From Caldisericia bacterium (GTDB taxonomy: Bacteria; Caldisericota; Caldisericia; JAAYUI01): DNA of 64,000 nucleotides. Below the pieces are notes generated by a model. The model did not search any database. It saw nothing but the letters and a program-made list of their open reading frames with translations, and was not told the origin of the DNA. A program made the translations under genes and the position numbers. Location of the stretch: positions 896,001 through 960,000 of the forward strand of contig OY771555.1 of NCBI GenBank assembly GCA_963674785.1, in the 5' to 3' direction. Below are positions 40,020-57,772 of this stretch, piece by piece. Every line of letters begins with the position of its first letter. The stretch's first letter is position 1.

Positions 40020-40904
40020 ATGAAAAAACTAAGCGATATTACTTCATGGGCAACTGAGCTTGATAAACGTTTACCAGAATCTGCGTTAAGACTTTTTTCA
40101 GATGGATTACTTATTGACCCTCTTGATAAAGTGAAGCTTTCGGCATCTGAATGGATTATCAACCATATATCTCCTGCTCCATACAACTATTCGACTAGAC
40201 AGAACAATATTATTGACACTGATAAGTCAAGATGGGGTAAGGTTTTCTGCAGGAAATACATGAATTGGGATGTAAGGGCAAGAATAAGCCAGACAAAAGG
40301 CATTGAGCTTACAAGAGCACAGTTTCGCAACAGACTGGTCATTAGAAATCATCAGATGGTTCCATACACATATCTTCTTCGGAGAGCCAGGTGCAGATTT
40401 GGTCCATTTGCATGTACCTTTGGTGATGGTTTTGTTGTTGGAGCACTCTACTGTCTTGCTGGCGGAGAGAGCGTTTTGCAACTCTTTTGGTTTAAAGAAG
40501 ATGGTAGGGCAACATCTCAACTCCTTCAAACAAGAGAAATATTTGGAAGCTTTGCTTTCACATTCAAAATCCTCGCTGAGAAGCTAATATACAAAGACAA
40601 AAATAATATCTTAAAAGAAGCACTCAATTTTCCAAAATGCGTTGATTCGATAGATATCGGCTCAAAAGATAAAATCATCTGTGTCAACTCATCTGAGAGA
40701 AACAACTGTTGGTTCAGCTTCAATGATCCTCAGAAGTACAGATGTACATTCGTAGAATCAATCTGCAGAAAAACAAAATTGTTTGAATTCGGGATTTGTT
40801 TTGAAGTGCAGGGTGATTATTATGCCAAGGTCATTGACGGACCAACACTCGAGGTTTCTCAGTTAAGATCATTCAATGGTGATGGACTCAAAAGGAAAAC
40901 ATAA
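40020..40904 (+). CDS. Hypothetical protein
   Basis: Long ORF with no recognised motif; start inferred from the -10 position. Confidence 0.55.
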   Translation: MKKLSDITSWATELDKRLPESALRLFSDGLLIDPLDKVKLSASEWIINHISPAPYNYSTRQNNIIDTDKSRWGKVFCRKYMNWDVRARISQTKGIELTRAQFRNRLVIRNHQMVPYTYLLRRARCRFGPFACTFGDGFVVGALYCLAGGESVLQLFWFKEDGRATSQLLQTREIFGSFAFTFKILAEKLIYKDKNNILKEALNFPKCVDSIDIGSKDKIICVNSSERNNCWFSFNDPQKYRCTFVESICRKTKLFEFGICFEVQGDYYAKVIDGPTLEVSQLRSFNGDGLKRKT

Positions 40905-42286: not shown

Positions 42287-42867
42287 AAAAGACCCCCAAG
42301 ATAACAAATTCCACCAGATAAAATTAGATGAATGATTATCAGAGAGATTAGCTTCAGAGTAGATGAATCATTTTCGGTGGCGATCATCCAAAGGAGAATG
42401 TATCTAAATAAAACAAGTATCAACGCTGGGTAAAGTAGAAGAATAGCCTCAAAAATAGCGTTAGCGGTCAACCCCGAAAAAGGAAGTATTTTATAAAGGT
42501 TCCAGAAAATCTCGTGATACAGGAAACCAATCAAAGCCAGACCAAAACAGCAGAGCTGGATGAGCGTAAAATTATTTATGTATCCGTTTATCCCTTTTTT
42601 CCCATACACAATAAACATTGGAAGAAATATTGAGAATATCTGTGTTCCAAGAGAAAAAAGGAAGAGTGGAAAGAGTTTTAGTTCCGGGGTTGGAAAGAGA
42701 GTTATCCCAAAGATGCTTGGGGAAAGTGAATTTGAAAGAAGAAGTAAAAATGAAGCAAGGATGATAAATGCTCCAGCAAGGATCGATTGCCAAATTGGTA
42801 TCTGCATCCCAATTGCTTCCCTTGGGGAGATAAAAAGCATTTTGATTTGAAGGAAAACTTTTTTCAT
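42283..42867 (-). CDS. Polytopic membrane protein (Yip1-like)
   Basis: MLFISPREAI start motif and about 5 TM helices. Confidence 0.6.
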   Translation of the reverse strand: MKKVFLQIKMLFISPREAIGMQIPIWQSILAGAFIILASFLLLLSNSLSPSIFGITLFPTPELKLFPLFLFSLGTQIFSIFLPMFIVYGKKGINGYINNFTLIQLCCFGLALIGFLYHEIFWNLYKILPFSGLTANAIFEAILLLYPALILVLFRYILLWMIATENDSSTLKLISLIIIHLILSGGICYLGGLL

Positions 42868-43109
42868 CCACCTACCACCGAGAGAAGAAAGTTAACAAAG
42901 TCTGGTAAAAGGTCTGTTCTTTGGGTGATAATAAGAACTGAAAAAACGGCTGTAACAAGAGCAAAAGACCATCCAACCGCTGATTGAATTGGATGTGCTC
43001 TGTTGTACGATCCAATATTTTCAAGGGCAACCCGCAGCTTTGGGATGAAACTTTCACTTAGAATTGTTCCTGGTTTTGCTTGATTTATTTTATTATCTAT
43101 TTCTTTCAT
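42864..43109 (-). CDS. Putative small anti-sigma factor
   Basis: Overlaps the ECF stop; one C-terminal TM. Confidence 0.55.
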   Translation of the reverse strand: MKEIDNKINQAKPGTILSESFIPKLRVALENIGSYNRAHPIQSAVGWSFALVTAVFSVLIITQRTDLLPDFVNFLLSVVGG

Positions 43110-43629
43110 TTGAGTTCCCTGACAAAATGCTTTTCATTTTTTCCTTTGCGTGAAAAATTCTTGACTTCACAGTCCCAATTGGAATCTTTAGAAGCTTAGA
43201 AATCTCTCCCATTGTAAGTCCTTCATAAAAATCCAGAAGAAGCGGGAGCCTGAATTTTTCTGGTAGATTCATAATCTCTCTTCTAACATCAAGCACAACG
43301 GCATCATCATTTGGGTCTCCCCAGTCAATCTCAATATCAAGCGGAAGTTTTCGCTTGTTTTTTCTGTAGAAATCAATTGCAAGATTTTTTGCGATTCTGA
43401 TAACCCAGTTTTCAAAAGGAATACCGGGTTTAAGTGAGTGAATCTTTGTGAAAGCTTTAAGGAAAGCCTCCTGTGTGATTTCCTCGGCGATTGCCTTGTT
43501 CCCTGTAACATACAAACAAACCCTCGCAACTTTTTCCATGCAAGTTTTTGTGAGAGAAATAAACGCTTCCTTATCGCCATTTCTCGCATCCTCTGTGAGT
43601 TTACTCGTTGTTTCCAGTTCATCTGACAT
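43093..43629 (-). CDS. ECF RNA polymerase sigma factor
   Basis: EEITQEAFLKAF, WVIRIAKN, EISKLLKIPIGTVKSRIFHAK. Confidence 0.9.
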   Translation of the reverse strand: MSDELETTSKLTEDARNGDKEAFISLTKTCMEKVARVCLYVTGNKAIAEEITQEAFLKAFTKIHSLKPGIPFENWVIRIAKNLAIDFYRKNKRKLPLDIEIDWGDPNDDAVVLDVRREIMNLPEKFRLPLLLDFYEGLTMGEISKLLKIPIGTVKSRIFHAKEKMKSILSGNSNERNR

Positions 43630-43648
43630 GTCATTTTGTACTACTTAT

Positions 43649-43676
43649 CAAACGAACAGAACCATGTGATGGTTCA
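43649..43676 (-). promoter_or_regulatory. Putative autoregulatory ECF promoter
   Basis: TGAACC-N16-CGTT upstream of the sigma gene, resembling the SigW-type consensus TGAAAC-N16-CGTA. Confidence 0.5.
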
Positions 43677-43679
43677 AAA

Positions 43680-45017
43680 TTATTCATCACCCCAGTTTCC
43701 AGCTCCACCCTCTCTGGCAAGCACTTCAAATCTGGTGTACTGGTTAAGGAATTTGAGACCGATCATTCCAACTGGACCGTTTCTCTGCTTGGCAAGAATC
43801 AGGTTGATGATTCCTTGACCTCGTTCCTGTTCTGAGGCAGGACGGGATAGGAACATGACCACATCTGCGTCTTGCTCAATTGAGCCACTCTCTCTCAAGT
43901 CTGAAAGCACCGGTCTGTGGTCTTGCCTCTGCTCAACTGACCTTGAAAGCTGCGACTGGACAATAATTGGAACTGAAAGCTCTCTGGCAAGTCCTTTAAG
44001 TGACCTTGTGATATGGGAGACTTCTTGAGTCCTGTTTTCTGTTTTTGTTTTTGTGTGAAGAAGCTGGAGGTAGTCAATGATTATCATCTTGATGTCTTTG
44101 TCCATGGCAAGCTTTCGGGCTTTTGCACGAAGCTCAAGCACGGTCATGTCAGCTGAGTCGTCAATATAGATTGGTAGTTGATTTATATCACCCAGCTTTT
44201 TTGCCATTCTCTCCCAGGCATCTTCGGAGAGTTTTCCTCGCCTCATGTCTTGAGAATTGATCCTCGCCTCAGAACTTATGATTCTTTGGGCAAGTGACTC
44301 TTTTGACATTTCGAGAGAAAATATTGCAACACCATCGCCTTTTCTTGCAATATTGCAAGCAACATTGATTCCAAGAGCAGATTTTCCAACAGATGGCCTT
44401 GCTGCGAGAATGATGAGGTCTGATGATTGGAAACCTGCTGTCATCTTATCAAGATCAGCAAATCCTGATGCAACACCGGTAATTCCTGTTCCAGCCTGAT
44501 GGATTTCCTCAAGTCTATCAATTACGGGATTCAGTAGTTTGTTGAGAGCTGTGAAACCTGCAGATTTTTTCCTGAGTGAGATTTCAAATATTTTTTTTTC
44601 GGCAGTATCGAGTGCTGCGTTGGAATCAATATCATCAAGATAACCCATTCCAGCAATCTCTTCACCAACTCTGATGATGTTTCGAAGGATTGATTTTTGG
44701 GAAACGATTGTTGCATAATAGTTGAGGTTTGCGGATGTTGGAGTGGCGTTTGTTAAATCCATCAGATAACCCATCCCACCAGACTGATCGAGTATCTTTT
44801 GTTGTTTCAGTTCCTCTGAGACTGTGAGCATGTCCACAGGACGTGATGTTTCATAGAGCCTTTCGATTGACTCGAAAATCATTTTGTGGCGAGGCTCATA
44901 GAAATCATCCGCTGTGATTTTAACTTCGAGTTTAGCAAATCCATCGGGGTCGATGAGGATTCCACCAAGAGTCGCCTGCTCTGCCTCAATTGAAAATGGG
45001 GGGATTCTTGTTTCCAT
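43680..45017 (-). CDS. dnaB: Replicative DNA helicase
   Basis: PPFSIEAEQ, AARPSVGKS, IDYLQL, SDLRESGSIEQDAD, AKQRNGP. Confidence 0.97.
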   Translation of the reverse strand: METRIPPFSIEAEQATLGGILIDPDGFAKLEVKITADDFYEPRHKMIFESIERLYETSRPVDMLTVSEELKQQKILDQSGGMGYLMDLTNATPTSANLNYYATIVSQKSILRNIIRVGEEIAGMGYLDDIDSNAALDTAEKKIFEISLRKKSAGFTALNKLLNPVIDRLEEIHQAGTGITGVASGFADLDKMTAGFQSSDLIILAARPSVGKSALGINVACNIARKGDGVAIFSLEMSKESLAQRIISSEARINSQDMRRGKLSEDAWERMAKKLGDINQLPIYIDDSADMTVLELRAKARKLAMDKDIKMIIIDYLQLLHTKTKTENRTQEVSHITRSLKGLARELSVPIIVQSQLSRSVEQRQDHRPVLSDLRESGSIEQDADVVMFLSRPASEQERGQGIINLILAKQRNGPVGMIGLKFLNQYTRFEVLAREGGAGNWGDE

Positions 45018-45110
45018 ATTGTGCCATATATTAGCCTGTAATTTTACAAAGGGCAAGCAATAAACCAAAATAGAAATTGAAACTTTTACAAATTATGTTA
45101 TAGTCTTCCT

Positions 45111-45851
45111 GTGGACTGGACTGAAAGCTATTTTGATTCATTTTATGCGGATGCCTTTTTGTCAGAAATTGACGAAAAAAGAACAAGGGCTCAGGTAGAT
45201 ATAATTCTTGCCAATCTTGGTCTCGATACTCCGGCAATGATTGCAGATATTGGCTGCGGACTGGGAAGGCATACAATTGAGCTTGCGAAACGTGGCTATG
45301 TTGTACAGGGATTCGATTCCAATGCTGAGTATCTGAAACGTGCGACTGAATCTGCTGCAAGACAAAACGCAAAAAACGCTTTTTTTGTTCACATGGACAT
45401 GAGGGATTTTTTATTCAAGGAAGAGTTTGATGCACTGATTTCTGTGTGGGTTTCATTTGGATATTTTGATGATGAAACAAATGCAGATGTGTTTGCAAGG
45501 ATGATCAAAAGTGTAAAACCGGGTGGCAACGTTTTTATTGATGTTGAAAACCGTGAATATATCCTTCAGCATTTTCAGCCACAGTCTTGGAAAATGAAGG
45601 GCGACACTCTGATTCTTGAACGAAGCAGCTTTGACCACAATAGATCAATGAATGTCTGCAAAAGAATGATTTTGAGAAAAGGTCAAAAAACCACAACAAA
45701 AAGAGAAATCAGATTATATTCAGCTCATGAGCTGATGGCTCTTGCCCATGCAAACGATCTTTATGATATTAAACTGCTTGGTGATTGGGAAGGAACACCA
45801 TACAGTGTTAGAAGTCCAAGACTTATCCTTACCGCTCGAGTTGGTTTGTAG
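45111..45851 (+). CDS. Class I SAM-dependent methyltransferase
   Basis: DIGCGLGRH, DMRD, SFGYF. Confidence 0.88.
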   Translation: MDWTESYFDSFYADAFLSEIDEKRTRAQVDIILANLGLDTPAMIADIGCGLGRHTIELAKRGYVVQGFDSNAEYLKRATESAARQNAKNAFFVHMDMRDFLFKEEFDALISVWVSFGYFDDETNADVFARMIKSVKPGGNVFIDVENREYILQHFQPQSWKMKGDTLILERSSFDHNRSMNVCKRMILRKGQKTTTKREIRLYSAHELMALAHANDLYDIKLLGDWEGTPYSVRSPRLILTARVGL

Positions 45852-45860
45852 GAGTTATTT

Positions 45861-48458
45861 ATGCGAAAACTGACAATCTTTCTTACTGTTCTCACAATAA
45901 TTTTTTCTTTGGGTGTTACTTATGCGGAGTATGAAAACCCGGATCATCATGGTGTATGGATTGAGGCAGAGACTGCAACATTAATTGGTTGTAAAGAAGC
46001 CTACACCGAAAATTTCCTAGAGTATAATTATTCAGCAAGCAAAGAGGGCTTTTTGAGATTAAATCTCTCACCGACTGATGAGCTTGCATCAAAAAATAGC
46101 ATTTCACTTGAATGGGTTATCAGAGAAAAATATGGAATAGATTTTAGAAGCCTTTGGGTTTCTGCTACTAACTTTGGAAATTCCATGCCAGAAATCTCTT
46201 TTACTGCTGAGAATATTGAAGGTTTTAATATTATTAGCCTTTCAGGTGATGCTGTTATGATAGAGAAGGGCTCATCATATGGGGATTTCACCTGGTTGAA
46301 GTATGAAATTCCTTTCAATCTAAAATATGGTCAGCCTACAACCTATAAACTCACAATGAGTATTCAAACAGACTCTCCTTTTGATATTGGCTTAGATGCG
46401 ATTTATATATCTGACGACAAATATACTCCATATTCAAAGTCCTCTCCACTGGCTGATGCAACATTCCAATATGCGTCAAAAAAACTTCAGATAATTAATC
46501 CCCCACTGACAACTGATTTCACTGACAAACTGATTGTAAAACCTGATGACTTAGTAGATGAAATCTCATCAAAAACACCAGCTGGTGTGAAGCATTCTTT
46601 TGTGATCGGAATAAATGGTGGAGTCGACCTTGGTGATGTCCAGCTTATTAATAATTTTCCTTTGGAAAACGATAACGGAGACAAACTTCCTGAGATCGAT
46701 TTTTCAATTGTTTCTTATATGAGAAAAAGATTTGCATGGACAGGGAGTGTAAAGGATGTTGTGACATCTCCCGAGTATCTTACGCCTGGAAATTCAGCCC
46801 CTATCAGGGAAGGAAAAACAGAGTTCTTTTGGTTGAGTGTTGATATTCCGGTAGATACAAAACCTGGAATCTACAAAACTCGATTACTGATTGATACAGA
46901 GCCTGTGGAAGATTTGATGTTCCCCATAAATATTGAGGTTTTGCCATACAAGGTTGACATTAATGACTTCCCAGAAAAGCTTGAAGTTTCAAAGCTTGGT
47001 TCAGTAAAAGTAACCGACAGAATAATCTTCCAGTCGATTCCTCATACTGATGAGGCGGTTGATAAGAAGATAACGATGGATGAAGCCTGGAAAAGGTGGG
47101 AAGCTGATCTTGAGGAAATCTCATCCCATGGTTTCAATTGCCTTGTTTTCAAACTTCCAACAATCAAAAGTCCAGTCTATTTTCCGGATACTGAAAAATT
47201 GGAAAAGATTTCAACCCTTGCCAAACAAAACAAATTTAAAAGATTGTTTGTAGATATTACAGGGGCAACAGAAGATTGTTTCGAGGTTGAGGGAAGATAC
47301 TTCCTGGAGGAATACCCAAGGGAACTTGAAAAAATTGCAAAAACTGTCTCAGATGCTGGAGTTGAGACTGTTTTGTATTATGATTTCGAAAAATTTGAAA
47401 CTGAGCAAACATCTCTTCTTCACGAAGCCTTTGATTTGATGGAGAGTAAACCTCTCATATCAGCAAGCTATTCTGAAGTAAATACAGGTTTTTCAAAGGT
47501 TGATATTCCACTTTATCCTCATGACGAAATTGACTGGATTAGGGAATCTAAAAAACTTTCAAATGGAAATTGGATTTTCGAACCGAAAGTCCATCATGGT
47601 AGACACAAAGAGATGAGACTCCTTTCTGGGCTTTATTCTCTTTCGTCAAAATCTCCAATCTGTGGAATCAGTATTTTCAATGTTCCATATGGAAATTCGG
47701 AAAATGATTTTGATATCATGCTTGATGCTGTTCGTTATACTCCAGGTGATTACATGATGGTCTACACAAAAGAAGGCTACGAGATGTATCCTTCCTTGAA
47801 ATGGGAATGTTTTTATGAGGGGCTTGTCGACCGGGCTCTGATGGATATTCTCCTTGAAAAAATTGCCAATAACACGAAGAGTGAATCATCAGTTGCTGCG
47901 ATGGAATTTCTGAAATTTATTGCTCCAATGAATGCCACTTTTAAGGATGTTTCAAATTCATTTTCACCTGAGGAATTAAGGCTTATAAGAGATAGATTGA
48001 TCGATTACATAATCTGGCGAGATGGTGGAGAAAAGGTTGAAAACCCATGCGTAAGAAGGGACGTAATTTTCAAAATCGGTTCAAAGATATTTAGATCAAA
48101 CGGCGTTGAATCCGAGATGACAGTTGAACCTGTGATCATTGATGGGTCAACATTTATTCCTGCAAGATATTTGGTTGAACCACTTGGTGGAACTGCATCC
48201 TGGGAAGGTTCAACTCGAACTGTAATCCTTGAAGCACTTGGACACAAAGTTGAATTAGTGATAGATAAGGCTGATGCAAAAAGTGATGGCGAAAATGTCA
48301 CCTTGTCAAAGCCACCAACAATAGTAAATGGAAGAACGCTTATCCCTTTCAGAGCAGCAAGCACATTACTTGGCGCAGAGGTTTCATGGAATGCACAAAC
48401 AAGAGAGGCAATCTGTGATTTTGACCTCGGAAAAAGACTTTTGATGGAGATTGAATGA
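45861..48458 (+). CDS. Secreted protein with glycoside-hydrolase-like central region and C-terminal copper-amine-oxidase-N (stalk) domain
   Basis: Signal peptide; FWLSVDIPVDTKPGIY, PSLKWECFYEGLVD; PVIIDGSTFIPAR, GRTLIPFRA. Confidence 0.7.
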   Translation: MRKLTIFLTVLTIIFSLGVTYAEYENPDHHGVWIEAETATLIGCKEAYTENFLEYNYSASKEGFLRLNLSPTDELASKNSISLEWVIREKYGIDFRSLWVSATNFGNSMPEISFTAENIEGFNIISLSGDAVMIEKGSSYGDFTWLKYEIPFNLKYGQPTTYKLTMSIQTDSPFDIGLDAIYISDDKYTPYSKSSPLADATFQYASKKLQIINPPLTTDFTDKLIVKPDDLVDEISSKTPAGVKHSFVIGINGGVDLGDVQLINNFPLENDNGDKLPEIDFSIVSYMRKRFAWTGSVKDVVTSPEYLTPGNSAPIREGKTEFFWLSVDIPVDTKPGIYKTRLLIDTEPVEDLMFPINIEVLPYKVDINDFPEKLEVSKLGSVKVTDRIIFQSIPHTDEAVDKKITMDEAWKRWEADLEEISSHGFNCLVFKLPTIKSPVYFPDTEKLEKISTLAKQNKFKRLFVDITGATEDCFEVEGRYFLEEYPRELEKIAKTVSDAGVETVLYYDFEKFETEQTSLLHEAFDLMESKPLISASYSEVNTGFSKVDIPLYPHDEIDWIRESKKLSNGNWIFEPKVHHGRHKEMRLLSGLYSLSSKSPICGISIFNVPYGNSENDFDIMLDAVRYTPGDYMMVYTKEGYEMYPSLKWECFYEGLVDRALMDILLEKIANNTKSESSVAAMEFLKFIAPMNATFKDVSNSFSPEELRLIRDRLIDYIIWRDGGEKVENPCVRRDVIFKIGSKIFRSNGVESEMTVEPVIIDGSTFIPARYLVEPLGGTASWEGSTRTVILEALGHKVELVIDKADAKSDGENVTLSKPPTIVNGRTLIPFRAASTLLGAEVSWNAQTREAICDFDLGKRLLMEIE

Positions 48459-51400
48459 AGCAGTTGATAGATGCTGTTTCAGATATAGACACCAATTTAT
48501 CCAGGTATAAATATTCCAAGAAATTAATCGAAAAACTTTCTGATTATTTGCATTTTCCTTCGGCAATGCTTATCGATTCAGAGGGTGATTCAAATATTGT
48601 TGCGGCACACAATATGACTGAGACTCAAAGCAAGGGAATCCTTGACTTGATTTCAAGATCAGGAATATCCTCTATGGTTGCGCACATCAATGAGACTCTT
48701 CCTCCACCATGGGGTGATATTTCTAAGTTTCATTTCAGATCTCTCATATCTATACCACTTAAATATAATAAGAATAGAGTTGGATATATTGTACTTCTCT
48801 CCCCAAAAAAACATGAGATATCAGAAGAAGATTTTGGTTATCTGAATACAATCTCCAGGATTGTATCCAATGGATATTCTGTTAATAAACTAAACTCGTC
48901 AGGTTTTCGAGGGGAGTGTTTTGCAACTATTGATAAAACTTTCCTGGATCAACTGAAGAGTGGTTTTTTGTCATATGATGCTGGTGGGAATATTGAATAT
49001 ATCAATCCGACACTTGTGGCGATGCTCGGGTCTCCTAACCCCGAAGAATCCAAAAAAATAAATTTGTTTACATTCCAGGGTTTGGTGGATGCTGGTTTAT
49101 CTGAATCTTTTAAACGAGCTGTGAAAACTGGAAATAAAGTTTTTTCAACGCATACATACGTTTCAAAGTGGGGCGTTGAGAGCTATTTTCATCTGAATAT
49201 CAACCCTGTAAAGGATGAAAACGGTCAGATTGTAGGTGCTCATGCCTATGTACATGATATTACCGATAAGGTAAAAACAAATTCTCTATTGACGGCGATA
49301 AATCGGACAAAAAAAGACCTTTTTGGGAAAAGAAATCTGAGTCTTGCGGTAAAACAAGTTTCAAAAGAGATTTTTGAGTTCATGGATGTTGATGATATGT
49401 TGATCTGTGAATTTGTTTTAGGGATGGATTATGGTGTTTGCAAGATAAAGTCTGAAATATCTAAAAAAGACCTGCCCAAACTAACAACAAAACAAACTAT
49501 CGATACCCATGAGATTGGTATTGATGAGCAGAGACTTGAACAGCTTATTGCAGGTGAATCGATAACAATTGATTTTTCAAAAGAATATGAAACAACATCA
49601 ATCAGGTCAGATTTTACACAGCTTCATGTGACACCAATCGGTTCACAAAATGAGCTTTTTGGGCTTATTGTGCTTTTCCAAAGAACTGGCAGAAGGATTT
49701 GGTCACAAGAGATTTCAATGCTAATGAGTGTTTATTCTAACTATCTACTCGCTGCGATAACTCAGCAAAAAGATTTGCAGAAACTTGAAACAAAGGTGAT
49801 TCAAAAAGCTGAGGCCACAGCTTTGGATAATTACCAGTTGCTTATTGAGACCTCACCCTTTTCGATTATTTTCTTTTCAGAGTCGGGAAAGATTAATGAG
49901 ATAAATCACGTCGGACATGAGCTTATTTCTGATTTTATTGAATCTGATAAAACGGGTATCGATTATCTTCCAAAAAAATTTCTGAAGATTTTTTCAAAAT
50001 ACTTTGATTCATGTGATGACATCTCAAAAATTGTCTCCAGAACTGAAACCATCACTTTAAGTGATGGTGAAATTAAATACATACGGTTCTACTTGAGGTT
50101 GTTGCCTGGACCAGGGCATAAAAAATATCTTTTGATCATCGAAGATACGACGATGGTTGAAGAGTCATCAAGCCTTTTATCAGATGAGATGAAAAGGGTT
50201 GAGATTGCAAATAGGTCAAAAAGTGAATTTCTGGCAAACATGTCTCATGAGATAAGAACACCATTGAATGCTCTACTTGGGTTCTCAGAGTTAATGCGAA
50301 ATGAGAAGCTGAGCGGAAAAGCATCTGAGTATCTGGAGGCAATATATACTGCAGGTGAAACACTTGACTATCTGACGTCTGATTTGTTAGACATTACAAG
50401 AATCGAAGCAGGTAAGTTGTCAGTTTATCCGGATGCAAATGATCTGAAATTGACAATAGATCAAGTTATTCAAATGCTTCGCTCGAAGATTGAGGAAAAG
50501 AACCTTGAGATTGTAAAGGTTTATCCTGACACTCCAAAAACCTTACACCTCTTTGATAAATCTAGAATCAAACAGGTTTTGATAAATCTGTTGGGTAATG
50601 CGATAAAGTTTACTGATAACGGTAGTATTGTCATAGGGTATAGTATTAGGTTCTCAGATGATTTTGATGATGAGATAATAGTTTTTGTTGATGACTCTGG
50701 AATCGGAATCCCATCTGAGATGAGGGAATCTATTTTCTCTGTATTTACTCAAATCAACAGTTCTGATACAAAAAGACATGCTGGGGCTGGACTTGGTCTT
50801 TCGATTGTCAAAGGAATTGTCGCCTCAATTGACGGGAAAATTCGTATTGTTGAAAAGAACTCTCCAGGAACCAGGTTTGAAATTGACCTCACTCTTGAAA
50901 GAGTAAATGAAAATGATAATGGTGAGCTTATTGCAACAACCGAGGATATATACGATAGAATCAGAAAACCTCTGGAAAATGCTTCATATAGGGTGAGGGT
51001 TGGAGGACTACAATCAGCAACAATTATTGTTATTGAGAGTGGAATCGATGAGATAACAAGGATGCTTACAATCAATCCATCTCTAAAAGTGGTTTCAATT
51101 GGAACAGAGGGCAAAGGTAATGGGTGGATTGGAATCAAAGAAAATTTCTCTTCCACAGAGCTGATTGATGCAATCAAAGAAGTTGCAAGCCAAGAGAAGA
51201 ACGAACAAGGTGATGTTGGTATTCTCAATGGATTAAAAATCCTGGTTGTTGAGGATAATCCCTTGAATATCAAATTGATAACAGAAATTCTCAATAATTA
51301 TGGTAGTGAGGTAACAGTCTCCAAAACAGGTGTTAGTGGTGTAAGCACAGCATCAGAAGGAGCTTTCGATGTTTGTCTGATGGATATACAGATGCCTGAC

Positions 51401-51922
51401 ATCTCTGGACTCGATGCAACCATGCAGATTCGATACAACGAAGAAAAGTTCGGTAAAAGAAGATTGCCAATAATTGCCCTTACTGCATATGCGTCAGTCA
51501 CAGATAGAGACAGATGCCTTACAGCAGGGATGGATGGGTATGTTTCAAAACCCATAAAAATCCCAGAGCTCATAAAAGCCGTTGAGGTTGCAATGGGTAA
51601 GAAAAAAACTTCAATCATTGAGAGACTATCTGAACAACTTCTGATTGCACCATTGAAACTGAAAGATATTCTTGAGGAATATGTCACAAAGAGTCTAGAG
51701 GGGATTATCGAGATAAAAGACTTTGTAGAGGCTGGCGAGTATAAGAAAGCCAGTGATGTTTGCCATAGACTCAAGGGAATGGCTTATTTTGAGCCACTTC
51801 TCTCAAAGATCATCAAACTCAGTGGGTCAATCAAGGCAAACAGCGATGAAGATATTTCTGAGCAGTTGACTGACCTTGAATGTGAATTCAATCGAATCCA
51901 AGAAGAGCTTGAAAAAGTATAG
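48455..51922 (+). CDS. Hybrid sensor histidine kinase (GAF/PAS-HisKA-HATPase-REC-Hpt)
   Basis: FLANMSHEIRTPLN, NLLGNAIKFT, GAGLGLSI, VVEDN...MDIQMP, CHRLKG. Confidence 0.92.
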   Translation: MKQLIDAVSDIDTNLSRYKYSKKLIEKLSDYLHFPSAMLIDSEGDSNIVAAHNMTETQSKGILDLISRSGISSMVAHINETLPPPWGDISKFHFRSLISIPLKYNKNRVGYIVLLSPKKHEISEEDFGYLNTISRIVSNGYSVNKLNSSGFRGECFATIDKTFLDQLKSGFLSYDAGGNIEYINPTLVAMLGSPNPEESKKINLFTFQGLVDAGLSESFKRAVKTGNKVFSTHTYVSKWGVESYFHLNINPVKDENGQIVGAHAYVHDITDKVKTNSLLTAINRTKKDLFGKRNLSLAVKQVSKEIFEFMDVDDMLICEFVLGMDYGVCKIKSEISKKDLPKLTTKQTIDTHEIGIDEQRLEQLIAGESITIDFSKEYETTSIRSDFTQLHVTPIGSQNELFGLIVLFQRTGRRIWSQEISMLMSVYSNYLLAAITQQKDLQKLETKVIQKAEATALDNYQLLIETSPFSIIFFSESGKINEINHVGHELISDFIESDKTGIDYLPKKFLKIFSKYFDSCDDISKIVSRTETITLSDGEIKYIRFYLRLLPGPGHKKYLLIIEDTTMVEESSSLLSDEMKRVEIANRSKSEFLANMSHEIRTPLNALLGFSELMRNEKLSGKASEYLEAIYTAGETLDYLTSDLLDITRIEAGKLSVYPDANDLKLTIDQVIQMLRSKIEEKNLEIVKVYPDTPKTLHLFDKSRIKQVLINLLGNAIKFTDNGSIVIGYSIRFSDDFDDEIIVFVDDSGIGIPSEMRESIFSVFTQINSSDTKRHAGAGLGLSIVKGIVASIDGKIRIVEKNSPGTRFEIDLTLERVNENDNGELIATTEDIYDRIRKPLENASYRVRVGGLQSATIIVIESGIDEITRMLTINPSLKVVSIGTEGKGNGWIGIKENFSSTELIDAIKEVASQEKNEQGDVGILNGLKILVVEDNPLNIKLITEILNNYGSEVTVSKTGVSGVSTASEGAFDVCLMDIQMPDISGLDATMQIRYNEEKFGKRRLPIIALTAYASVTDRDRCLTAGMDGYVSKPIKIPELIKAVEVAMGKKKTSIIERLSEQLLIAPLKLKDILEEYVTKSLEGIIEIKDFVEAGEYKKASDVCHRLKGMAYFEPLLSKIIKLSGSIKANSDEDISEQLTDLECEFNRIQEELEKV

Positions 51923-51929
51923 TTTGCAG

Positions 51930-53294
51930 TTATCCTTCAATTACTGCATAATTCCTGTTTTCTATGAGCCCAACACGCTTTGAAATCTCAACATATTTTT
52001 TGAGTAGTTGTGCAATCTCAGATTTTGTTTTTATACAAAAAGGTTCTGAGATTGCACCTTTTTTCTCAAATGCTGTTGCTGCACATCCTCCTCCACATAT
52101 AGGTACAATTGGACAATTTGAATCTATACATTTCTTCACTCGAATAAAACCACTTTCCAACCAATGTGTTTCACCATTATCTTTGTAAAAACCGTTTGAG
52201 TTCACATTTCCAACCGAATGACTTTCATTGCCAACAAAACTCCAGCATCTACCTATGTTTCCATCAGGATCAATAACGTAGTTATGGAATGAATGAGAGC
52301 TACACGGGGAAGTTATAAAGGTTTGTAAATACCTTTTTTTGAGTTCAAAAATATCTTTTATGAAACCATATTTATCCAATTCTTCTAGCCATTTTGTCAT
52401 AAAGCCATAGCGTTTTGGTTGTGGAATACAATTACATTCATATGAGGTGCTATCACCAGTCAATGACTGTATGAATGATGGGTGAATAGAAATTTTTTCA
52501 TTTTCCAGAAGCCCGTGTTGCCTTAAATCTGAAATCACTTCAGGAAGTGAGTCAGCATTTTTTGTGTCGAGATTAATCCTCAGTGCAATATGAGTTTTAG
52601 GTATCGTTTCCAATGCAGCTTTGATCCCCTCTATTATCAAGTCATATGAAGGTTTTCCACTTATGTATGTTCTTTGTTTGTCGTGGAATCTTCTCGAACC
52701 ATGTAAAGTCACTTGAATGTTTTTTAGAGGAAGATGTTTAAAATAATGTATATTACTTGTTAACAGTGATCCATTTGTAACCATCATCATATTTGTATTG
52801 GTGTTTGGATGATTTTTTGAGATGTATTCGAAAGTTTCTGTAAAAAAATGTGGTTGTAGTAAAGGTTCTCCACCATAACACCCAAGCAAAACCTCATAAA
52901 TATCATATTTTGCTATTCGTGATGAAATAAACCGCTTTAGATTTTCAAATGTACCCGTTGTCATCACTTTAGAATTTCTATGTTCATAGCAATATGGACA
53001 TGCAAAGTTGCAATTTAGTGTTGGAGCAAGAAGTATTCCCATTCTTTTTCCATCTTTTCCCCAGATATTTCTGAAGAAACCTAAAATCTTATCATCATTA
53101 GTGCTTTTATCATCAACCATAAAGCACGTTTTCAAAAGGTCTTTTGCAAGTGATGAGCTTTCTTCAATCAACTCAGGTTTTTCTATTATCCATGAGGGGA
53201 AGACTGCAATTGACCTTGTTATTGATGAAAGTGCGACATATTCATTCTCATTTATTTTTTCATAAAAAACATACTTAGAGAGGCGGAGACTCAT
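51930..53294 (-). CDS. Radical SAM/SPASM domain peptide maturase
   Basis: CNFACPYC, YGGEPLL, SPASM cysteines C..VIDPDGNIGRC..C-x4-C-x5-C-GGG-C..C; N-terminal extension that may be an RRE. Confidence 0.9.
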   Translation of the reverse strand: MSLRLSKYVFYEKINENEYVALSSITRSIAVFPSWIIEKPELIEESSSLAKDLLKTCFMVDDKSTNDDKILGFFRNIWGKDGKRMGILLAPTLNCNFACPYCYEHRNSKVMTTGTFENLKRFISSRIAKYDIYEVLLGCYGGEPLLQPHFFTETFEYISKNHPNTNTNMMMVTNGSLLTSNIHYFKHLPLKNIQVTLHGSRRFHDKQRTYISGKPSYDLIIEGIKAALETIPKTHIALRINLDTKNADSLPEVISDLRQHGLLENEKISIHPSFIQSLTGDSTSYECNCIPQPKRYGFMTKWLEELDKYGFIKDIFELKKRYLQTFITSPCSSHSFHNYVIDPDGNIGRCWSFVGNESHSVGNVNSNGFYKDNGETHWLESGFIRVKKCIDSNCPIVPICGGGCAATAFEKKGAISEPFCIKTKSEIAQLLKKYVEISKRVGLIENRNYAVIEG

Positions 53295-53308
53295 TGATTC
53301 TTCCTTTT

Positions 53309-53512
53309 TTATTCAGGTTCAGAAATTGGACAGCAATATGTTGCCTGACAGTATATATCACATAGAGAAACGATGTTCATAATATTCGGATCAAATGTAA
53401 CTTTATCTATCCAGCAGACTGATTTTGTTGGCACGATCTCCATTTTTGATAAATCAACTCTATTGCTGTCAATAACTATTTTTATTGAATTTTCATTATG
53501 TTGATAAGTCAT
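53309..53512 (-). CDS. Putative RiPP precursor peptide 4 (67 aa)
   Basis: AGGAGA RBS; paralog of the three upstream peptides; core CDIYCQATYCC. Confidence 0.8.
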   Translation of the reverse strand: MTYQHNENSIKIVIDSNRVDLSKMEIVPTKSVCWIDKVTFDPNIMNIVSLCDIYCQATYCCPISEPE

Positions 53513-53523
53513 TAAACTTTCTC

Positions 53524-53727
53524 CTATGTTGCTTCATTGTAGCCTTCACAAAACGTTTGAGCACAAAGTGGCTGACAACATGTAACAATATTCATATATC
53601 TTGGATCGTAGTTATTTGTATCTATCCAACAGACTGTTTTTGTAGGTACTTCTTGCATAGTTTGTGGATTGACTAGATTTGAGTTAATTGTAATTGCCAA
53701 AGAATTCTCATCTTTTATATATCCCAT
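53524..53727 (-). CDS. Putative RiPP precursor peptide 3 (67 aa)
   Basis: AAGGAGGA RBS; core CCQPLCAQTFC. Confidence 0.8.
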   Translation of the reverse strand: MGYIKDENSLAITINSNLVNPQTMQEVPTKTVCWIDTNNYDPRYMNIVTCCQPLCAQTFCEGYNEAT

Positions 53728-53736
53728 ATATCCTCC

Positions 53737-53946
53737 TTAACACATGTCATTGTAATTGCCAGAACAGTATGTTGAATGACAATATGTGGCAACGCAGGAA
53801 ACAACCGGAAGATGCATATTCGCATCATAATTTGAGAAATCGAGCCAACATACTTTTAAAATCGGAATTTCTTCCATTGTGTTTGGGTTAAATTGGTTCG
53901 GATTGATTGTAACACGGATAGAATTTTCATTATGCTGATATGACAC
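53737..53946 (-). CDS. Putative RiPP precursor peptide 2 (69 aa)
   Basis: GGAGGTGA RBS; core CVATYCHSTYC. Confidence 0.8.
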   Translation of the reverse strand: MSYQHNENSIRVTINPNQFNPNTMEEIPILKVCWLDFSNYDANMHLPVVSCVATYCHSTYCSGNYNDMC

Positions 53947-53957
53947 TCATTCACCTC

Positions 53958-54164
53958 CTAACTGATGTTTCCCTTTGAGTCACAAAAACCAATGTTGCAG
54001 AAATTACTTTGACAGTATCCAACAACTTCCATAGTATTTTGATCAAAATTACTCTTATCTATCCAAACGACGATTTTATTGTTATCAATCTCCATGATTC
54101 CAGTATCAACTAATGTTGAGTTGATACCAATTCTTAAAGAGTCTTGATCATGTATATACGGCAT
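53958..54164 (-). CDS. Putative RiPP precursor peptide 1 (68 aa)
   Basis: GGAAGGAG RBS before ATG 54164, aligning with the paralog starts; core CQSNFCNIGFC. Confidence 0.8.
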   Translation of the reverse strand: MPYIHDQDSLRIGINSTLVDTGIMEIDNNKIVVWIDKSNFDQNTMEVVGYCQSNFCNIGFCDSKGNIS

Positions 54165-54421
54165 AAAGCACTCCTTCCATAAGTTTCCACCCCTCACTAA
54201 TTCACAATATAGAGGGGCTGTGACAGTGTACAATTAAACTTCCTTAACTGAAATAGCGACATTCTTAGCATTAATATTGCTAATATATCATTTCTTAATG
54301 TAAGTTTATATTATTTCCAGAATTATGAATGACTTCTGTTAGATAGGTATAAATTGATAAAATCCATGATTATGACAAAAACAAAGTTGACCAACCCCCA
54401 TTTTTTTGATAAAAAATAAGC

Positions 54422-55492
54422 ATGAGAAAATTCTTAGTTCCAGTTTTACTTCTTGTTGTTTTTGTTGCTTGTTCATGTGGGAAACCAATGCCAAACCAAA
54501 AACATCTCGACTCGTTTTCGATGCTTCCTGATTTTGTTGTCACAAAGTCAAGTGAATCGGGAAACAGTGTGACACTGTATTCCTTTGATATGGAGGCAAT
54601 CAGGGCAAACATCCAGATTGATAAAGAAAAACCACATACAGGTCAGGTCAATAATCTTGGAATAGCTGTAAGCAGAAACTATGAGAAAAATGCGGAACTT
54701 GGAATACTCGATCTTGAAAAAATGAAATATATAGCGACTTGCCCATATTGGAATGTCCAAGCATTTACACCTGCTGGTGGGCTTTTGGAAAAAATATCTG
54801 ATGCCGGATTTATTGAAGAGATCATTGGTGATGGGTATCTTCTGACGAAGGATTTTGAAGACAACATCACAGCCGAACTTGCGCCAGTTAACTGTTTTGT
54901 TGATGATACAATTGTTCAGGTCACAACAACAGCAAAACTTCAAAAAGAGGCAGTAACTTTGATGCTAATGGAGGAAGGCAACAGAGTTGATAAATTCCCC
55001 GCAATTTCTGAGATATTAAAATTGATGCCAGAATACCAAGCAGTTTGCCTTGTTTTCAGTTTTGATAGATACAGTGTGCTTGCTGAAGATGGTAGCATTC
55101 CTGGCTTCTTTGATGCTGCTGAGCAGTATGACATGATTCCGAGATTTGAAACATGGGGAAGACCTGATTCATACAGGATGGGTGCGGTCGGATCGTCCGT
55201 TGTTGATGGGGTAGAGCATTCAACAATTGTGCTTCTCTATGATTCTGAAAAGTCGGCGAAAGATGACAAACTGAATGTTGATAAAGCATTGCTTTCTGTT
55301 CCAAGCATGGTTGATGGAAATCCTTGGATGAAACACATGAACTTTGGGAAACCAATCGTCAAGGTTCAAAAAAATGCGATACTAATCGATTTTGATATTG
55401 AGAATCGAAAAAAAGAAGATGGACTCTTTTCAATGCAGATGTTGAAGTTTATGGATAAAACTGGAGATTGGGGGGTATTTTGGAGAAAATAA
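54422..55492 (+). CDS. Hypothetical lipoprotein
   Basis: Signal peptide with VACSC lipobox. Confidence 0.7.
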   Translation: MRKFLVPVLLLVVFVACSCGKPMPNQKHLDSFSMLPDFVVTKSSESGNSVTLYSFDMEAIRANIQIDKEKPHTGQVNNLGIAVSRNYEKNAELGILDLEKMKYIATCPYWNVQAFTPAGGLLEKISDAGFIEEIIGDGYLLTKDFEDNITAELAPVNCFVDDTIVQVTTTAKLQKEAVTLMLMEEGNRVDKFPAISEILKLMPEYQAVCLVFSFDRYSVLAEDGSIPGFFDAAEQYDMIPRFETWGRPDSYRMGAVGSSVVDGVEHSTIVLLYDSEKSAKDDKLNVDKALLSVPSMVDGNPWMKHMNFGKPIVKVQKNAILIDFDIENRKKEDGLFSMQMLKFMDKTGDWGVFWRK

Positions 55493-56712
55493 CAAAGTCA
55501 ATTCTTGCTCTTGTACTTGTTTGTTTGCTTAGTGTTTCCTGTGGCGGGGACGGAGTAGACGAAGTTGTCAAGATTTCTGAGCCAAATCCGACAAACCCAA
55601 TACAGCAGGCTTTATCAAAAATGCCTGTTTCAATCATGAATCTTCCTGGAAGAGATCTCAAAATGAAAGCCTTTATCTTCAACAATATCGAATTAACCGT
55701 AAGGAGTAGAAACCTTGCAAATTATATGTTGGTGAATGAAAACGAGCAGATTTCATGGCTTTTTAAGATGGGTCATAATGTCACGTCGTCAATGAATTCA
55801 GTTATCGATTTTGGCAAATGGCATCATACAGATTTTATGAATCAAACAACCTGGAAGATGAATATCTTTGACTACACAAGAGACCATGAGGTTGTTTTCT
55901 CAAAATCTGATAAAGAAGAATTCCTCACCTGGATGCTCAGACACAATTTTGAAGTATACAAATCTGAGCCAGCATTGACCCTGAAACCAGGTAGTGTTTA
56001 TCATAGGGATGCTTATGTTTTTGGTGCCGGTATTGTTCAGGGTGAAGATGGGGCAACATTCATTTGTCGTGAGCTTCCAACAGATGGTACAGTTGATGAT
56101 GCGTTGGCAATTTATGAAGGTACGATGGGTTCCCTTCTTTCTGATCCAGAGATTTATGAAATTTCATCAAGGATTCCAGAGGGTGCTTTCTCTTCAATGA
56201 TCTGTAAACTTGATACATCATATGCAAAACACAATCAGGTCACAACTGCCGATACAACAGGTTTTTCTGGTGTTCCTTTAACTGATGAACAGACCGTTTG
56301 GGTTTCAGTTTATGGAAGACCAAAGGAATTGACTTGGTTTTCAGCTTCACACATCACAAAAGATGGTCATCACGGACTTCTTTGGGAGTTCCAGTATGAA
56401 ACACCTGAGGCAGCAGAGGCTGACTTGACTCCACTTACTGATGCAATTACTGAGGCAAAGGGCAGATTCACAGAAAAGAATTGGTGGGATGAAGACCTTC
56501 ATCTTGAATCCCCTGAGATTTCTGTTGAGGACAATATCATATCAATCTGGTCAGAGTGGATAATCCCCAGGGATGAAAAAAAGAAGATTGAATCTGGTAT
56601 CATGACCGACGAAGAGAAGGAAACTCTCTGGTTTGAATATGTCCGAAGCATCTTTGATCTGTTTGACAAATTCGAACGCCAGGATTACGGTCCACTTTGG
56701 CAGGGGTATTGA
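55468..56712 (+). CDS. Hypothetical lipoprotein, distant paralog of the preceding gene
   Basis: LSVSC lipobox; shared C-terminal pattern (GRP, Y-x5-A-x2-D, W, D[WY]G..W). Start may be TTG 55480. Confidence 0.7.
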   Translation: MGGILEKITKSILALVLVCLLSVSCGGDGVDEVVKISEPNPTNPIQQALSKMPVSIMNLPGRDLKMKAFIFNNIELTVRSRNLANYMLVNENEQISWLFKMGHNVTSSMNSVIDFGKWHHTDFMNQTTWKMNIFDYTRDHEVVFSKSDKEEFLTWMLRHNFEVYKSEPALTLKPGSVYHRDAYVFGAGIVQGEDGATFICRELPTDGTVDDALAIYEGTMGSLLSDPEIYEISSRIPEGAFSSMICKLDTSYAKHNQVTTADTTGFSGVPLTDEQTVWVSVYGRPKELTWFSASHITKDGHHGLLWEFQYETPEAAEADLTPLTDAITEAKGRFTEKNWWDEDLHLESPEISVEDNIISIWSEWIIPRDEKKKIESGIMTDEEKETLWFEYVRSIFDLFDKFERQDYGPLWQGY

Positions 56713-56713
56713 G

Positions 56714-57772
56714 TTAGATATTTTCAGGTTTCAATTCAAATTGAATTTGATACGTCATTAACTTTATGTTTTGTGATGCCTTAAGAGCGTACTTGAGCTT
56801 TTCTGAATAGTCGCCTGCAATGATTAATCCCTCAACTTGGTTGTCTGATGATGCAAGATTCTCAGATACCCAGCCAATGTATCTTTGAATCTGACCAAGT
56901 GTTTCATCAGATGTTTTGTCTTTTTTAAGTTCGATGACCAACCACCTATCTTCGGTTTTATGGGATGCAAGAATGTCTATTCTACCTATATTTCCAGCAA
57001 TATATTCAACTCCAACGGTTGCACCATCTTCCTTGTGAATCTCCCATTGCCCAAATTCTTTCAGGTTATCCCAATTGCCGGCTAAGAAATCTTGTAGATG
57101 TTTTTCTAATTCAAAGTTGCCGTTGTTTGTGAGAGAACTGCTGGAATAGCCAGAATTTGTAAAATCAACTTCATTTGATTTTTGTATTTCTTCTCGGTAG
57201 ATAAATTCAAACAAGGCGTTGAGAGTCCATTTGTCAATTACCAGTTCTTCTGAAAGAGATCCAAGCATCAGGTTTACCAAAATATGTTTCAATAACACTG
57301 TATCTCCACCATCTGGCCATAAATCAAACTCTTTTATAACGTATTCAGCTGAAGCACTCCATATGCCATACTTATCTGGTTCCGTTATTTGTAGGATGGT
57401 GGTCAATACGTTTTTGTCTAGTCCCTTTATTTTTTGTTTTTCATTTGGGAATGCATATTCAAACCTATCGAACCGATTTTTTGATCTATCAAGAAACCCT
57501 TTGAATACTTGCCGAAGCTCATATATATCTTTTGTTATTTCCTTGGCTAGTTTGTCATAACTCTTCAATTGCTTGTTGTTTTCAAACTTCAAGAATTCAC
57601 AAAAAACTTTTCTGTCAAGTTTTCTTATATTTTCATATTGGAATATTGGTTGGTACTTTGCGATTACTTCATCTTTTGAGGAAACAACCATTTGAAACTC
57701 AGCATCTTTTTTTGCTCTATCTAGTGCTTCTTTGAGTGCAATAATTGCATCATCAAAAGCTTCTTTTGCCAT
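56714..57772 (-). CDS. Protein with C-terminal NucS/EndoMS-like PD-(D/E)XK endonuclease domain
   Basis: LEKHLQDFL, GRIDILA, VIELKK, GQIQRYIGWV, VEGLIIA. Confidence 0.8.
   Translation of the reverse strand: MAKEAFDDAIIALKEALDRAKKDAEFQMVVSSKDEVIAKYQPIFQYENIRKLDRKVFCEFLKFENNKQLKSYDKLAKEITKDIYELRQVFKGFLDRSKNRFDRFEYAFPNEKQKIKGLDKNVLTTILQITEPDKYGIWSASAEYVIKEFDLWPDGGDTVLLKHILVNLMLGSLSEELVIDKWTLNALFEFIYREEIQKSNEVDFTNSGYSSSSLTNNGNFELEKHLQDFLAGNWDNLKEFGQWEIHKEDGATVGVEYIAGNIGRIDILASHKTEDRWLVIELKKDKTSDETLGQIQRYIGWVSENLASSDNQVEGLIIAGDYSEKLKYALKASQNIKLMTYQIQFELKPENI

Follow-up and report, generated by a model that had tools for sequence, protein, structure and literature searches.

A Caldisericia locus with four paralogous Cys-rich precursors and one radical SAM/SPASM peptide maturase

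In Clo7bot clusters, several tandem paralogous Cys-containing precursors stand beside one gene for a radical S-adenosylmethionine (rSAM) enzyme with a SPASM domain. The same architecture is found in the locus described here, which lies at positions 51930..54164 of a 64,000-nucleotide (nt) stretch of DNA from a Caldisericia bacterium (GenBank assembly GCA_963674785.1, contig OY771555.1, positions 896,001 to 960,000); this whole stretch is called the window, and its numbering is used throughout. SCIFF precursors form a single conserved family of ~45 amino acids (aa), and PapB cores use C-x3-D/E. In NHLP and Nif11 systems, a leader of ~50 or more aa that is homologous to a domain of ordinary proteins is reused before variable cores, often in multiple paralogs. 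A model for the CefA precursor also exists. Literature searches found no paper on the Cef system, 'Cys-every-fifth' or OhkG/FlmE, none on the term Clo7bot, and no RiPP (ribosomally synthesised and post-translationally modified peptide) or radical SAM literature for Caldisericota.

Cys-rich cores are cross-linked by thioethers in the SCIFF/CteB and PapB systems, according to PMC10114670 and PMC10288494. A close parallel to the window locus is CrpABC, of which one report (PMC13692751) gives the following picture. CrpC, which is assigned to TIGR04463, contains three [4Fe-4S] clusters. It forms thioether links, regarded by the authors as ranthionines, on CrpA, a Cys-rich protein, with Cys 3-4 residues ahead of the acceptor in motifs such as CAVD or CPLVL. 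The first 47 residues are common to CrpA and CrpB, and the N-terminal domain, beyond a short RiPP recognition element (RRE) motif, contributes to processing. Compared with that picture, the window locus is similar in its predicted RRE/rSAM/SPASM enzyme architecture, in paralogous substrates that share an N-terminus of ~47-50 residues and differ in their Cys-rich C-termini, in its protease-free cluster and in the position of Cys a few residues before candidate acceptors; TIGR04463 is also the second-best, full-length family match of the window maturase. The two systems differ in substrate and in host: CrpA has a mass of 28.8 kDa, ten repeats of 17 residues and C-x-x-Q/D motifs (PMC13692751), whereas the window-family substrates are 62-69 aa long with C-x4-C pentads rich in Thr and Tyr/Phe, and Crp is archaeal whereas the window system belongs to Caldisericota.

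On our best reading of the sequences, both the leader family and the maturase subfamily of the locus are new, within a known kind of system, that is, Cys-rich peptides matured by RRE-rSAM-SPASM enzymes. A preliminary description of the locus had proposed a new RiPP class; this was not borne out, because RiPP classes are defined by chemistry and the enzyme falls within the known group of Cys-peptide maturases. The leader family may already be listed in surveys, namely one of 3,421 predicted sacti/ranthipeptide clusters (PMC10288494) and one of rSAM-associated Cys-rich proteins (PMC13692751).

Four precursor genes and one maturase gene form a tight operon

Four co-oriented open reading frames (ORFs) of 67-69 aa upstream of an rSAM/SPASM gene had been reported in the preliminary description, and this layout was recovered at identical coordinates on the minus strand. 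The features of the locus, and of a second locus in the same genome (locus B), are the following.

53958..54164, minus strand: precursor 1, 68 aa from ATG, core YCQSNFCNIGFCDSKGNIS with Cys 51, 56 and 61; Shine-Dalgarno (SD) site AAGGAG; profile match at E 1e-34
53737..53946, minus strand: precursor 2, 69 aa, GTG start, core CVATYCHSTYCSGNYNDMC; ortholog P0005 retains all four core Cys
53524..53727, minus strand: precursor 3, 67 aa, core CCQPLCAQTFCEGYNEAT; ortholog P0006
53309..53512, minus strand: precursor 4, 67 aa, core LCDIYCQATYCCPISEPE; ortholog P0004
51930..53294, minus strand: radical SAM/SPASM peptide maturase, 454 aa; PF04055 and TIGR04085 above cut-off
53055..53294, minus strand: RRE-like N-terminal domain of the maturase, ~aa 1-80, predicted from model strands and the CteB alignment
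52989..53012, minus strand: codons of the radical SAM [4Fe-4S] motif C95-x3-C99-x2-C102, invariant in 55 of 55 aligned homologs
52035..52304, minus strand: SPASM region, aa 331-420, with C331, C350, C389, C394, C400, C404 and C420
54165..54421: intergenic region of 257 nt from precursor 1 to the divergent gene at 54422; presumed operon promoter region, by position only
51896..54403: indel stretch of 2508 nt, to which 110 nt are equivalent in the same-genus genome G003
Locus B, contig piece L005 (G000:C1 ~2138088-2141252), just downstream of mraY: precursor at 1474-1665, minus strand, and rSAM gene at 64-1446, minus strand

The intergenic gaps in the operon, taken from the coordinates, are 11, 9, 11 and 14 nt, in agreement with the range of 9-14 nt given before, and SD sites of the AGGAG, GGAGG, GGAGA or AAGGAAG type lie 5-9 nt ahead of each of its starts. 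For precursor 1, an upstream TTG start would yield 91 aa but has no SD site. A sigma-70 scan showed no minus-strand site within 54165..54421, and Rfam showed no matches for the locus. Contigs of four sequencing runs held only the likely source assembly and, in mat and sediment runs, a few near-identical fragments (169-392 nt), which do not inform on expression.

The four core sequences quoted in the preliminary description were exact. Its list of invariant residues (Y3, S9, I14, M24, V32, W34, D36, D41, V48 and C51) stood in the gap-free reading; MAFFT returned the same leader positions but not the same Cys register, as it introduced one gap and aligned C56 and C61 rather than C51. The shared N-terminal region comprises ~50 aa (in precursor 1, the leader spans approximately residues 1-49) and is followed by tails of the C-x4-C-x4-C type. 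As judged from the alignment, the window peptides have a conserved leader and a variable core: between paralogs, 18-26 of 49 positions are identical in the leader versus 2-5 of 18 in the core. Across all 13 family members, Cys are the only core residues kept; a Cys spacing of five is present at least once in 13 of the 13 peptides and twice in five of them. Orthologs retain the core Cys positions while other core residues vary, and most cores keep a [Y/F] immediately ahead of their second and third Cys. Modelled alone, the peptide gave a mean pLDDT (predicted local distance difference test) of 64, with four beta-strands in residues 9-51 at ~70 and a tail below 50, predicted to be disordered.

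No precursor family in NCBIfam or Pfam accounted for the leader. In agreement with the preliminary description, which had not recognised it as SCIFF, Nif11, NHLP or mycofactocin type, the four window peptides gave no credible match at E<=1 to these or to any other NCBIfam or Pfam family. The locus-B peptide and two further precursor types (P0007 and P0008, see below) gave no RiPP-family match at E<=0.01 among the NCBIfam and Pfam precursor models, and the NHLP peptide of locus L033, used as a positive control, scored 66.5 bits in the same family scan. A PDB profile search with the peptides gave chance matches only (E 0.2), and an ESM Atlas look-up of peptide 2 returned only unnamed clusters (0.86).

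Employing a profile of the four peptides, we recovered each of them in the genome at E 1e-34 to 5e-38, and a fifth paralog at E 1.2e-16 that lies 1.19 Mb from the window locus in the same 2.23-Mb genome. In this locus B, a 63-aa precursor ending in CGCPNYRCWQNGSTME is directly followed by a 460-aa rSAM/SPASM gene, the product of which is 31% identical to the window maturase over the full length. The locus-B core contains CPNYRCW, with Trp after Cys, and is identical in the same-genus species G003. Of the ten other genomes that represent species of the taxonomic family, four (G003, G004, G008 and G010) have such a pair of a single precursor and an rSAM. Its neighbourhood varies by genus, with mraY in one genus and genes for a 4Fe-4S membrane protein and a dCMP deaminase-like protein in another. 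Adjacency of homologs to rSAM genes had been named in the preliminary description as a check, and short homologs adjoined an rSAM in all six loci with readable context. The sequences therefore support its proposal of leader-plus-core peptides paired with an rSAM/SPASM maturase, one enzyme serving four diverged cores.

The locus-B precursor is under purifying selection. Among three sister-genus genomes it shows 6-11 synonymous versus 1-2 non-synonymous differences, and the ratio of non-synonymous to synonymous substitution rates (dN/dS) is 0.02-0.04. The two same-genus species have saturated synonymous sites and differing leaders, yet share without change the segment FDPNQMELCGCPNYRCWQNGS, which covers the last residues of the leader and the core. 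The presence of a fifth paralog with its own rSAM, the recurrence of the pair in four genomes, the low dN/dS and the identical core stretch together indicate that the small ORFs are real genes.

Family placement and architecture of the maturase

The rSAM assignment made in the preliminary description was confirmed. PF04055 matched with 57.9 bits (cut-off 29.5) and the SPASM model TIGR04085 with 52.8 bits (cut-off 27) over residues 331-420, and the CxxxCxxC motif lies at C95, C99 and C102. In an alignment of 55 homologs, the Cys of CxxxCxxC and C350, C389, C394, C400 and C404 are invariant, and C289, C331 and C420 nearly so. By these sequence marks, the enzyme belongs to the radical SAM superfamily and to the SPASM-domain peptide maturases. 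Its scores against curated maturase families are as follows.

CefB, 'Cys-every-fifth' maturase (NF038107): 176.7 bits, cut-off 600, residues 36-436
CrpC family (TIGR04463): 165.9 bits, cut-off 525
Clo7bot maturase (TIGR04334): 151.8 bits, cut-off 600
Geopeptide maturase (TIGR04280): 149.5 bits, cut-off 400
FlmE/OhkG: 125.5 bits, cut-off 500
PapB (NF047865): 114.3 bits, cut-off 340
SCIFF maturase (TIGR03974): 88.5 bits, cut-off 425

The top six matches are nearly full-length, and all are named for Cys-rich or thioether peptides; weaker NCBIfam matches include the cyclophane formers YhhB and FxsB, and DynA. CefB is the best family match of both rSAMs (205.6 bits for that of locus B), and Cys stand at every fifth position in the cores, as the name of that family says. 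Unlike the Cef system, however, both enzymes score far under the 600-bit cut-off, and no NCBIfam precursor model matches the window-family peptides. The score for TIGR04463 likewise places the maturase outside that family. Clo7bot, the third-best match, shares the tandem architecture but differs in that its cut-off is not reached and the leader is unrelated (no NCBIfam match). With SCIFF and PapB the differences are scores under both cut-offs, the absence of either motif from the window peptides and the lack of a SCIFF precursor match, whereas the SCIFF maturase CteB is the nearest solved structure by both sequence and fold.

The AlphaFold 2 model of the maturase had a pLDDT of 90.3. CteB was its best fold match (Z 26; 387-399 residues aligned, model 6-436 on chain 1-448, N-terminal domain included) and the only strong PDB sequence match (E 1.6e-17); further fold matches were TigE, ChlB and SuiB. 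At the N-terminus, the model has strands at 3-5, 9-15, 18-23 and 28-33, followed by helices. The enzyme anSME, which has no N-terminal peptide-binding domain, aligned from model residue 83 only, and CteB from residue 6 (chain residue 1). Because CteB fits over the full length and anSME only from residue 83, the model points to an architecture of RRE-like domain, rSAM barrel and SPASM domain as in CteB, in which the N-terminal domain (~aa 1-80) would be the leader-binding element. Pfam PqqD gave no match in the maturase. Complex prediction with the maturase and peptide 1, both supplied as alignments, gave a score of 0.02 and a mark of 0.32, which has no bearing on whether the two bind.

When the 55 homologs were placed in a maximum-likelihood tree, the six rSAMs that accompany the leader grouped into one clade with support of 100/99. 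This clade includes two pairs of identical sequences, hence four distinct ones, and the window enzyme is its earliest branch. Other relatives, at 25-30% identity, have different partners. The rSAM of L033, from a metagenome-assembled genome of Lachnospiraceae, accompanies a peptide with an NHLP leader (TIGR03793, 66.5 bits) and the core ACFVDACAGNAC, of the C-x4-C-x4-C type; that of a Dysgonomonas relative accompanies a peptide with a GG-type leader and CGVHCTGSSC. Since these rSAMs pair with different leaders yet with Cys-containing cores, the comparison suggests that the enzyme group acts on such cores behind interchangeable leaders, the window leader being one more, lineage-restricted solution.

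The sister group of the clade comprises one Acidobacteriota and two Spirochaetales enzymes. At the Spirochaetales loci (L080 788-877 and L081 2671-2760), candidate precursors of 29 aa, MI..(I/V)LDRG.ENP(I/V)DIL.(F/W)CCLW.EGDY., are encoded ~90 nt upstream of the rSAM gene, which is followed by a gene for ~850 aa.

Range and origin of the leader family

A word-indexed search of 5.8 billion proteins returned only three of the window peptides and three orthologs, P0004-P0006, all three on a single 1012-nt contig that is too short to show an rSAM. With an exhaustive hidden Markov model search, 10 proteins were found at E<=0.001 among 1.84 billion representatives (six short precursors, two long proteins with leader-like domains and two repeat proteins), among them the further precursor types P0007 (...CGCAKTFCPGTYC...) and P0008 (...GCSKTYCVATYC...). 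The two repeat proteins, P0010 and P0011, are long, matched only a 17-residue stretch of the profile and were judged to be motif coincidences. Where source names of family members are given, they read 'hypothetical protein' from Caldisericia or Caldisericales. Within the phylum Caldisericota, 8 of the 93 genomes searched had a match (our own genome included), all eight in one taxonomic family, in which 7 of the 10 other genomes matched. In six other families of the phylum, none of 82 genomes matched, which is to be read as 'not found' only, as many of them are incomplete; a scan of the genome collection with an alignment of the peptides found nothing outside our own genome. By these searches, the leader family appears very rare and lineage-restricted.

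The leader-like domain of ~50 residues is also present as two tandem N-terminal copies in proteins of 228-400 aa, found in G005, G007 and G009, which represent a third genus of the taxonomic family, and in the metagenomic proteins P0012 and P0013. The C-terminal part of these long proteins consists of GDxYG repeats and gave a sub-threshold match to Bactofilin (E 6.9e-4, 20.3 bits versus a cut-off of 27.9); no counterpart of this repeat part was found in the window genome. A reverse profile made from the long proteins recovered four of the five short peptides of the window genome (best E 1e-7). Of the three genomes with long proteins, two have no close homolog of the maturase, and the third has only distant rSAMs, in another cluster with unrelated precursors. 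The preliminary description had treated homologs lacking rSAM neighbours as a point against its proposal. This applies to the leader-like domain, which stands in long proteins without an adjacent rSAM, but not to the short peptides, which are paired in all six loci with readable context. Apparently, the 'leader' is a domain that also lives outside RiPP loci, as is the case for NHLP and Nif11.

Tandem-domain proteins of 228-239 aa of the sister genus (L011 946-1650, minus strand; L012 928-1647, minus strand; L013 1501-2187, plus strand) are always flanked by a small ribbon-helix-helix-like ORF, a glutamine synthetase gene and a gene for a secreted protein of ~300 aa.

To trace the origin of the four-gene array, we compared its flanks between genomes. 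G003 has both the histidine kinase gene and that at 54422, at 70-73% nucleotide identity, with 110 nt between them; in G001, the locus is missing between the same flanks, and G002 has no family member. Since G003 keeps the flanks 110 nt apart and G001 likewise has no locus between them, the alignments indicate a clean lineage-specific indel (2.4 kb) relative to a same-genus genome. There are no terminal repeats flanking it. The GC content is 0.33-0.35 inside the locus versus 0.36-0.41 in the flanks; as it is only slightly lower, a horizontal origin is not established. The orthologs of peptides 2-4 on the foreign contig show 71-78% leader identity (35-38 of 49-50 positions). Because the window enzyme branches before the locus-B enzymes split and these orthologs lie on a foreign contig, the array is old and was probably acquired rather than recently duplicated from locus B. 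The indel may be a gain here or a loss elsewhere.

The maturase stop codon is 7 nt from the end of a convergent gene (48455-51922, plus strand) for a hybrid histidine kinase of 1155 aa with GAF, PAS, HisKA, HATPase and receiver domains. The start of the latter overlaps by 4 nt with a gene (45861-48458, plus strand) whose product of 865 aa carries a copper amine oxidase N-terminal-like domain. On the other side lie ORFs of 356 and 414 aa (54422-55492 and 55468-56712, both plus strand) with lipoprotein-like N-termini and no Pfam family, ~70% identical in nucleotides to their G003 counterparts, and a 352-aa ORF (56714-57772, minus strand) with a C-terminal PD-(D/E)XK nuclease domain (YhcG_C, E 1.1e-8). 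None of these neighbours (kinase, two lipoprotein-like genes, PD-(D/E)XK-like gene) suggests processing or export.

Different RiPP-like clusters were seen in other genomes. In one family member (L116 772-1331 and 1423-4215; L114, G009:C15 ~40777-48920), two tandem Cys-containing ORFs of 90-92 aa (...NGCVIYCMTGD... and ...NGCCMVCPAGN...) precede three consecutive rSAM/SPASM genes. In G001, a same-genus genome without the leader family, Cys/Asp-rich ORFs of 113-132 aa lie upstream of two rSAM/SPASM genes (L117 417-1179; L115 1007-1363, G001:C52).

Proposed maturation, alternatives and significance

We consider it likely that one rSAM enzyme carries out a leader-guided maturation of a library of four cores, with thioether cross-linking as the most plausible chemistry. 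The four paralogous precursors would be co-expressed with the radical SAM/SPASM maturase from a minimal RiPP-type operon. Their N-terminal region of ~50 residues would serve as a recognition handle bound by the RRE-like domain of the enzyme, and the disordered C-terminal tail, with Cys at every fifth residue, often in x-T-[Y/F]-C pentads, would enter the active site. There, 5'-deoxyadenosyl radical chemistry would most likely link the sulfur of every Cys with a carbon atom of a residue within a few positions, so that each peptide gains two to four small thioether rings of the ranthionine or sactionine type. S-C(alpha) links would make the products sactipeptides, and S-C(beta) or S-C(gamma) links ranthipeptides. 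The acceptors may lie at +3 or +4 and would then be the conserved Thr or Tyr/Phe of the pentads. That the rSAM modifies the Cys-rich tails is highly probable. Thioether cross-linking of their Cys is the chemistry to which we lean, by analogy, because the CrpABC parallels are close (a shared N-terminus of ~50 residues, Cys-rich C-termini, a protease-free cluster).

Several observations weigh against this proposal. The maturase scores under every curated NCBIfam equivalog cut-off tested, so that family membership gives no ground for assigning its function. Related SPASM enzymes also catalyse the formation of C-C or C-O links or of cyclopropylglycine, or the epimerisation of residues, and the aromatic residues beside the Cys are as conserved as Thr. 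For the most divergent peptide clusters, P0007 and P0008, no relative turned up in two metagenome scans, and both stand outside the count of six paired loci. The long proteins with the leader-like domain have no adjacent rSAM. None of the family's loci contains a protease or exporter, and the genome, which is 92% complete, yielded no C39 peptidase domain in a search not extended to other proteases. Support is thus lacking for export and for leader removal, by which a RiPP in the strict sense releases its modified core.

The latter points bear on the product. The peptides may instead remain inside the cell as small cross-linked proteins that keep a folded N-terminal domain, as do CrpA and the QhpC subunit; their role might be that of metal or redox binders, or they might associate with a cytoskeletal scaffold. 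We regard this as possible but doubtful, and it is compatible with thioether chemistry. Since the leader domain also occurs outside RiPP loci, such a reading stays open: the domain is doubled in the 228-400 aa GDxYG-repeat proteins with their sub-threshold Bactofilin match, the N-terminal region is predicted to be beta-structured rather than a short helix or strand, every locus is a two-gene module that lacks proteases and transporters, and the genome has no C39 match. The locus-B core that is identical in two same-genus species with differing leaders would be expected for a fixed cellular partner, and CrpA is described as a protein substrate whose N-terminal domain contributes to binding (PMC13692751). 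Four hypervariable cores behind a conserved leader, however, are what is usually seen in secreted RiPPs that have diversified. In addition, confidence in the peptide model is only moderate (mean pLDDT 64), and genes for general proteases or exporters may lie elsewhere.

Somewhat less probable, in our judgement, is that the same pairing serves another chemistry. The enzyme might, for instance, rearrange a side chain, epimerise a residue, make a C-O link or form a C-C cyclophane from the conserved Tyr, Phe or Trp, in which case the Cys would be for disulfides, metal binding or ligation of auxiliary clusters during catalysis. The [Y/F] before the second and third Cys in most cores, the Trp in CPNYRCW and the CCLW of the sister Spirochaetales peptides are consistent with it, as are the weaker matches to YhhB, FxsB and DynA and the fold matches to TigE, SuiB and ChlB. 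What dictates thioether formation in such enzymes is called an open question in a review (PMC10114670). On the other hand, the top six full-length family matches are all maturases of Cys-rich or thioether peptides, only Cys are kept in the cores across all 13 family members, and the closest solved structure, CteB, is that of a thioether former.

More speculative still, and rather improbable, is that the (x-x-T-[Y/F]-C)n pentads carry an undescribed cross-link, for example from Cys sulfur to the adjacent Tyr/Phe or Thr in a new ring topology, and that the leader is an autonomous beta-domain. This domain would have come from bactofilin-like proteins or been passed on to them, and it would be recognised through contact between domains rather than through a short RRE motif. 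If this were true, the system would found a new RiPP class and exemplify for the first time a new origin of leaders. That the small ORFs are non-functional or their adjacency to an rSAM coincidental is hardly credible: no RNA data were found for the locus and no minus-strand promoter-like site lies upstream, but the genome has five paralogs and four other genomes have orthologs, always beside an rSAM, with dN/dS of 0.02-0.04, SD sites at all starts and an rSAM phylogeny that tracks the leader family.

From Caldisericota, the locus contributes a precursor family without a name and a maturase subfamily that is so far unassigned. The finding would be useful but incremental if the enzyme turned out to form ordinary ranthionines or sactionines. 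The system shares with NHLP and Nif11 a long leader that is homologous to a domain of other proteins and present in multiple paralogous copies; it differs in that the window peptides match neither TIGR03793 nor Nif11 and in that the donor-like domain is found in bactofilin-like proteins of a sister genus. The leader homology to the bactofilin-like tandem domain offers a third case, beside those two, for the evolution of leaders from protein domains. As a compact system of two gene types with no accessory genes and four natural core variants per enzyme, it could serve as a test bed for the influence of Cys spacing and of adjacent residues on the ring pattern that arises in thioether formation by rSAM enzymes.

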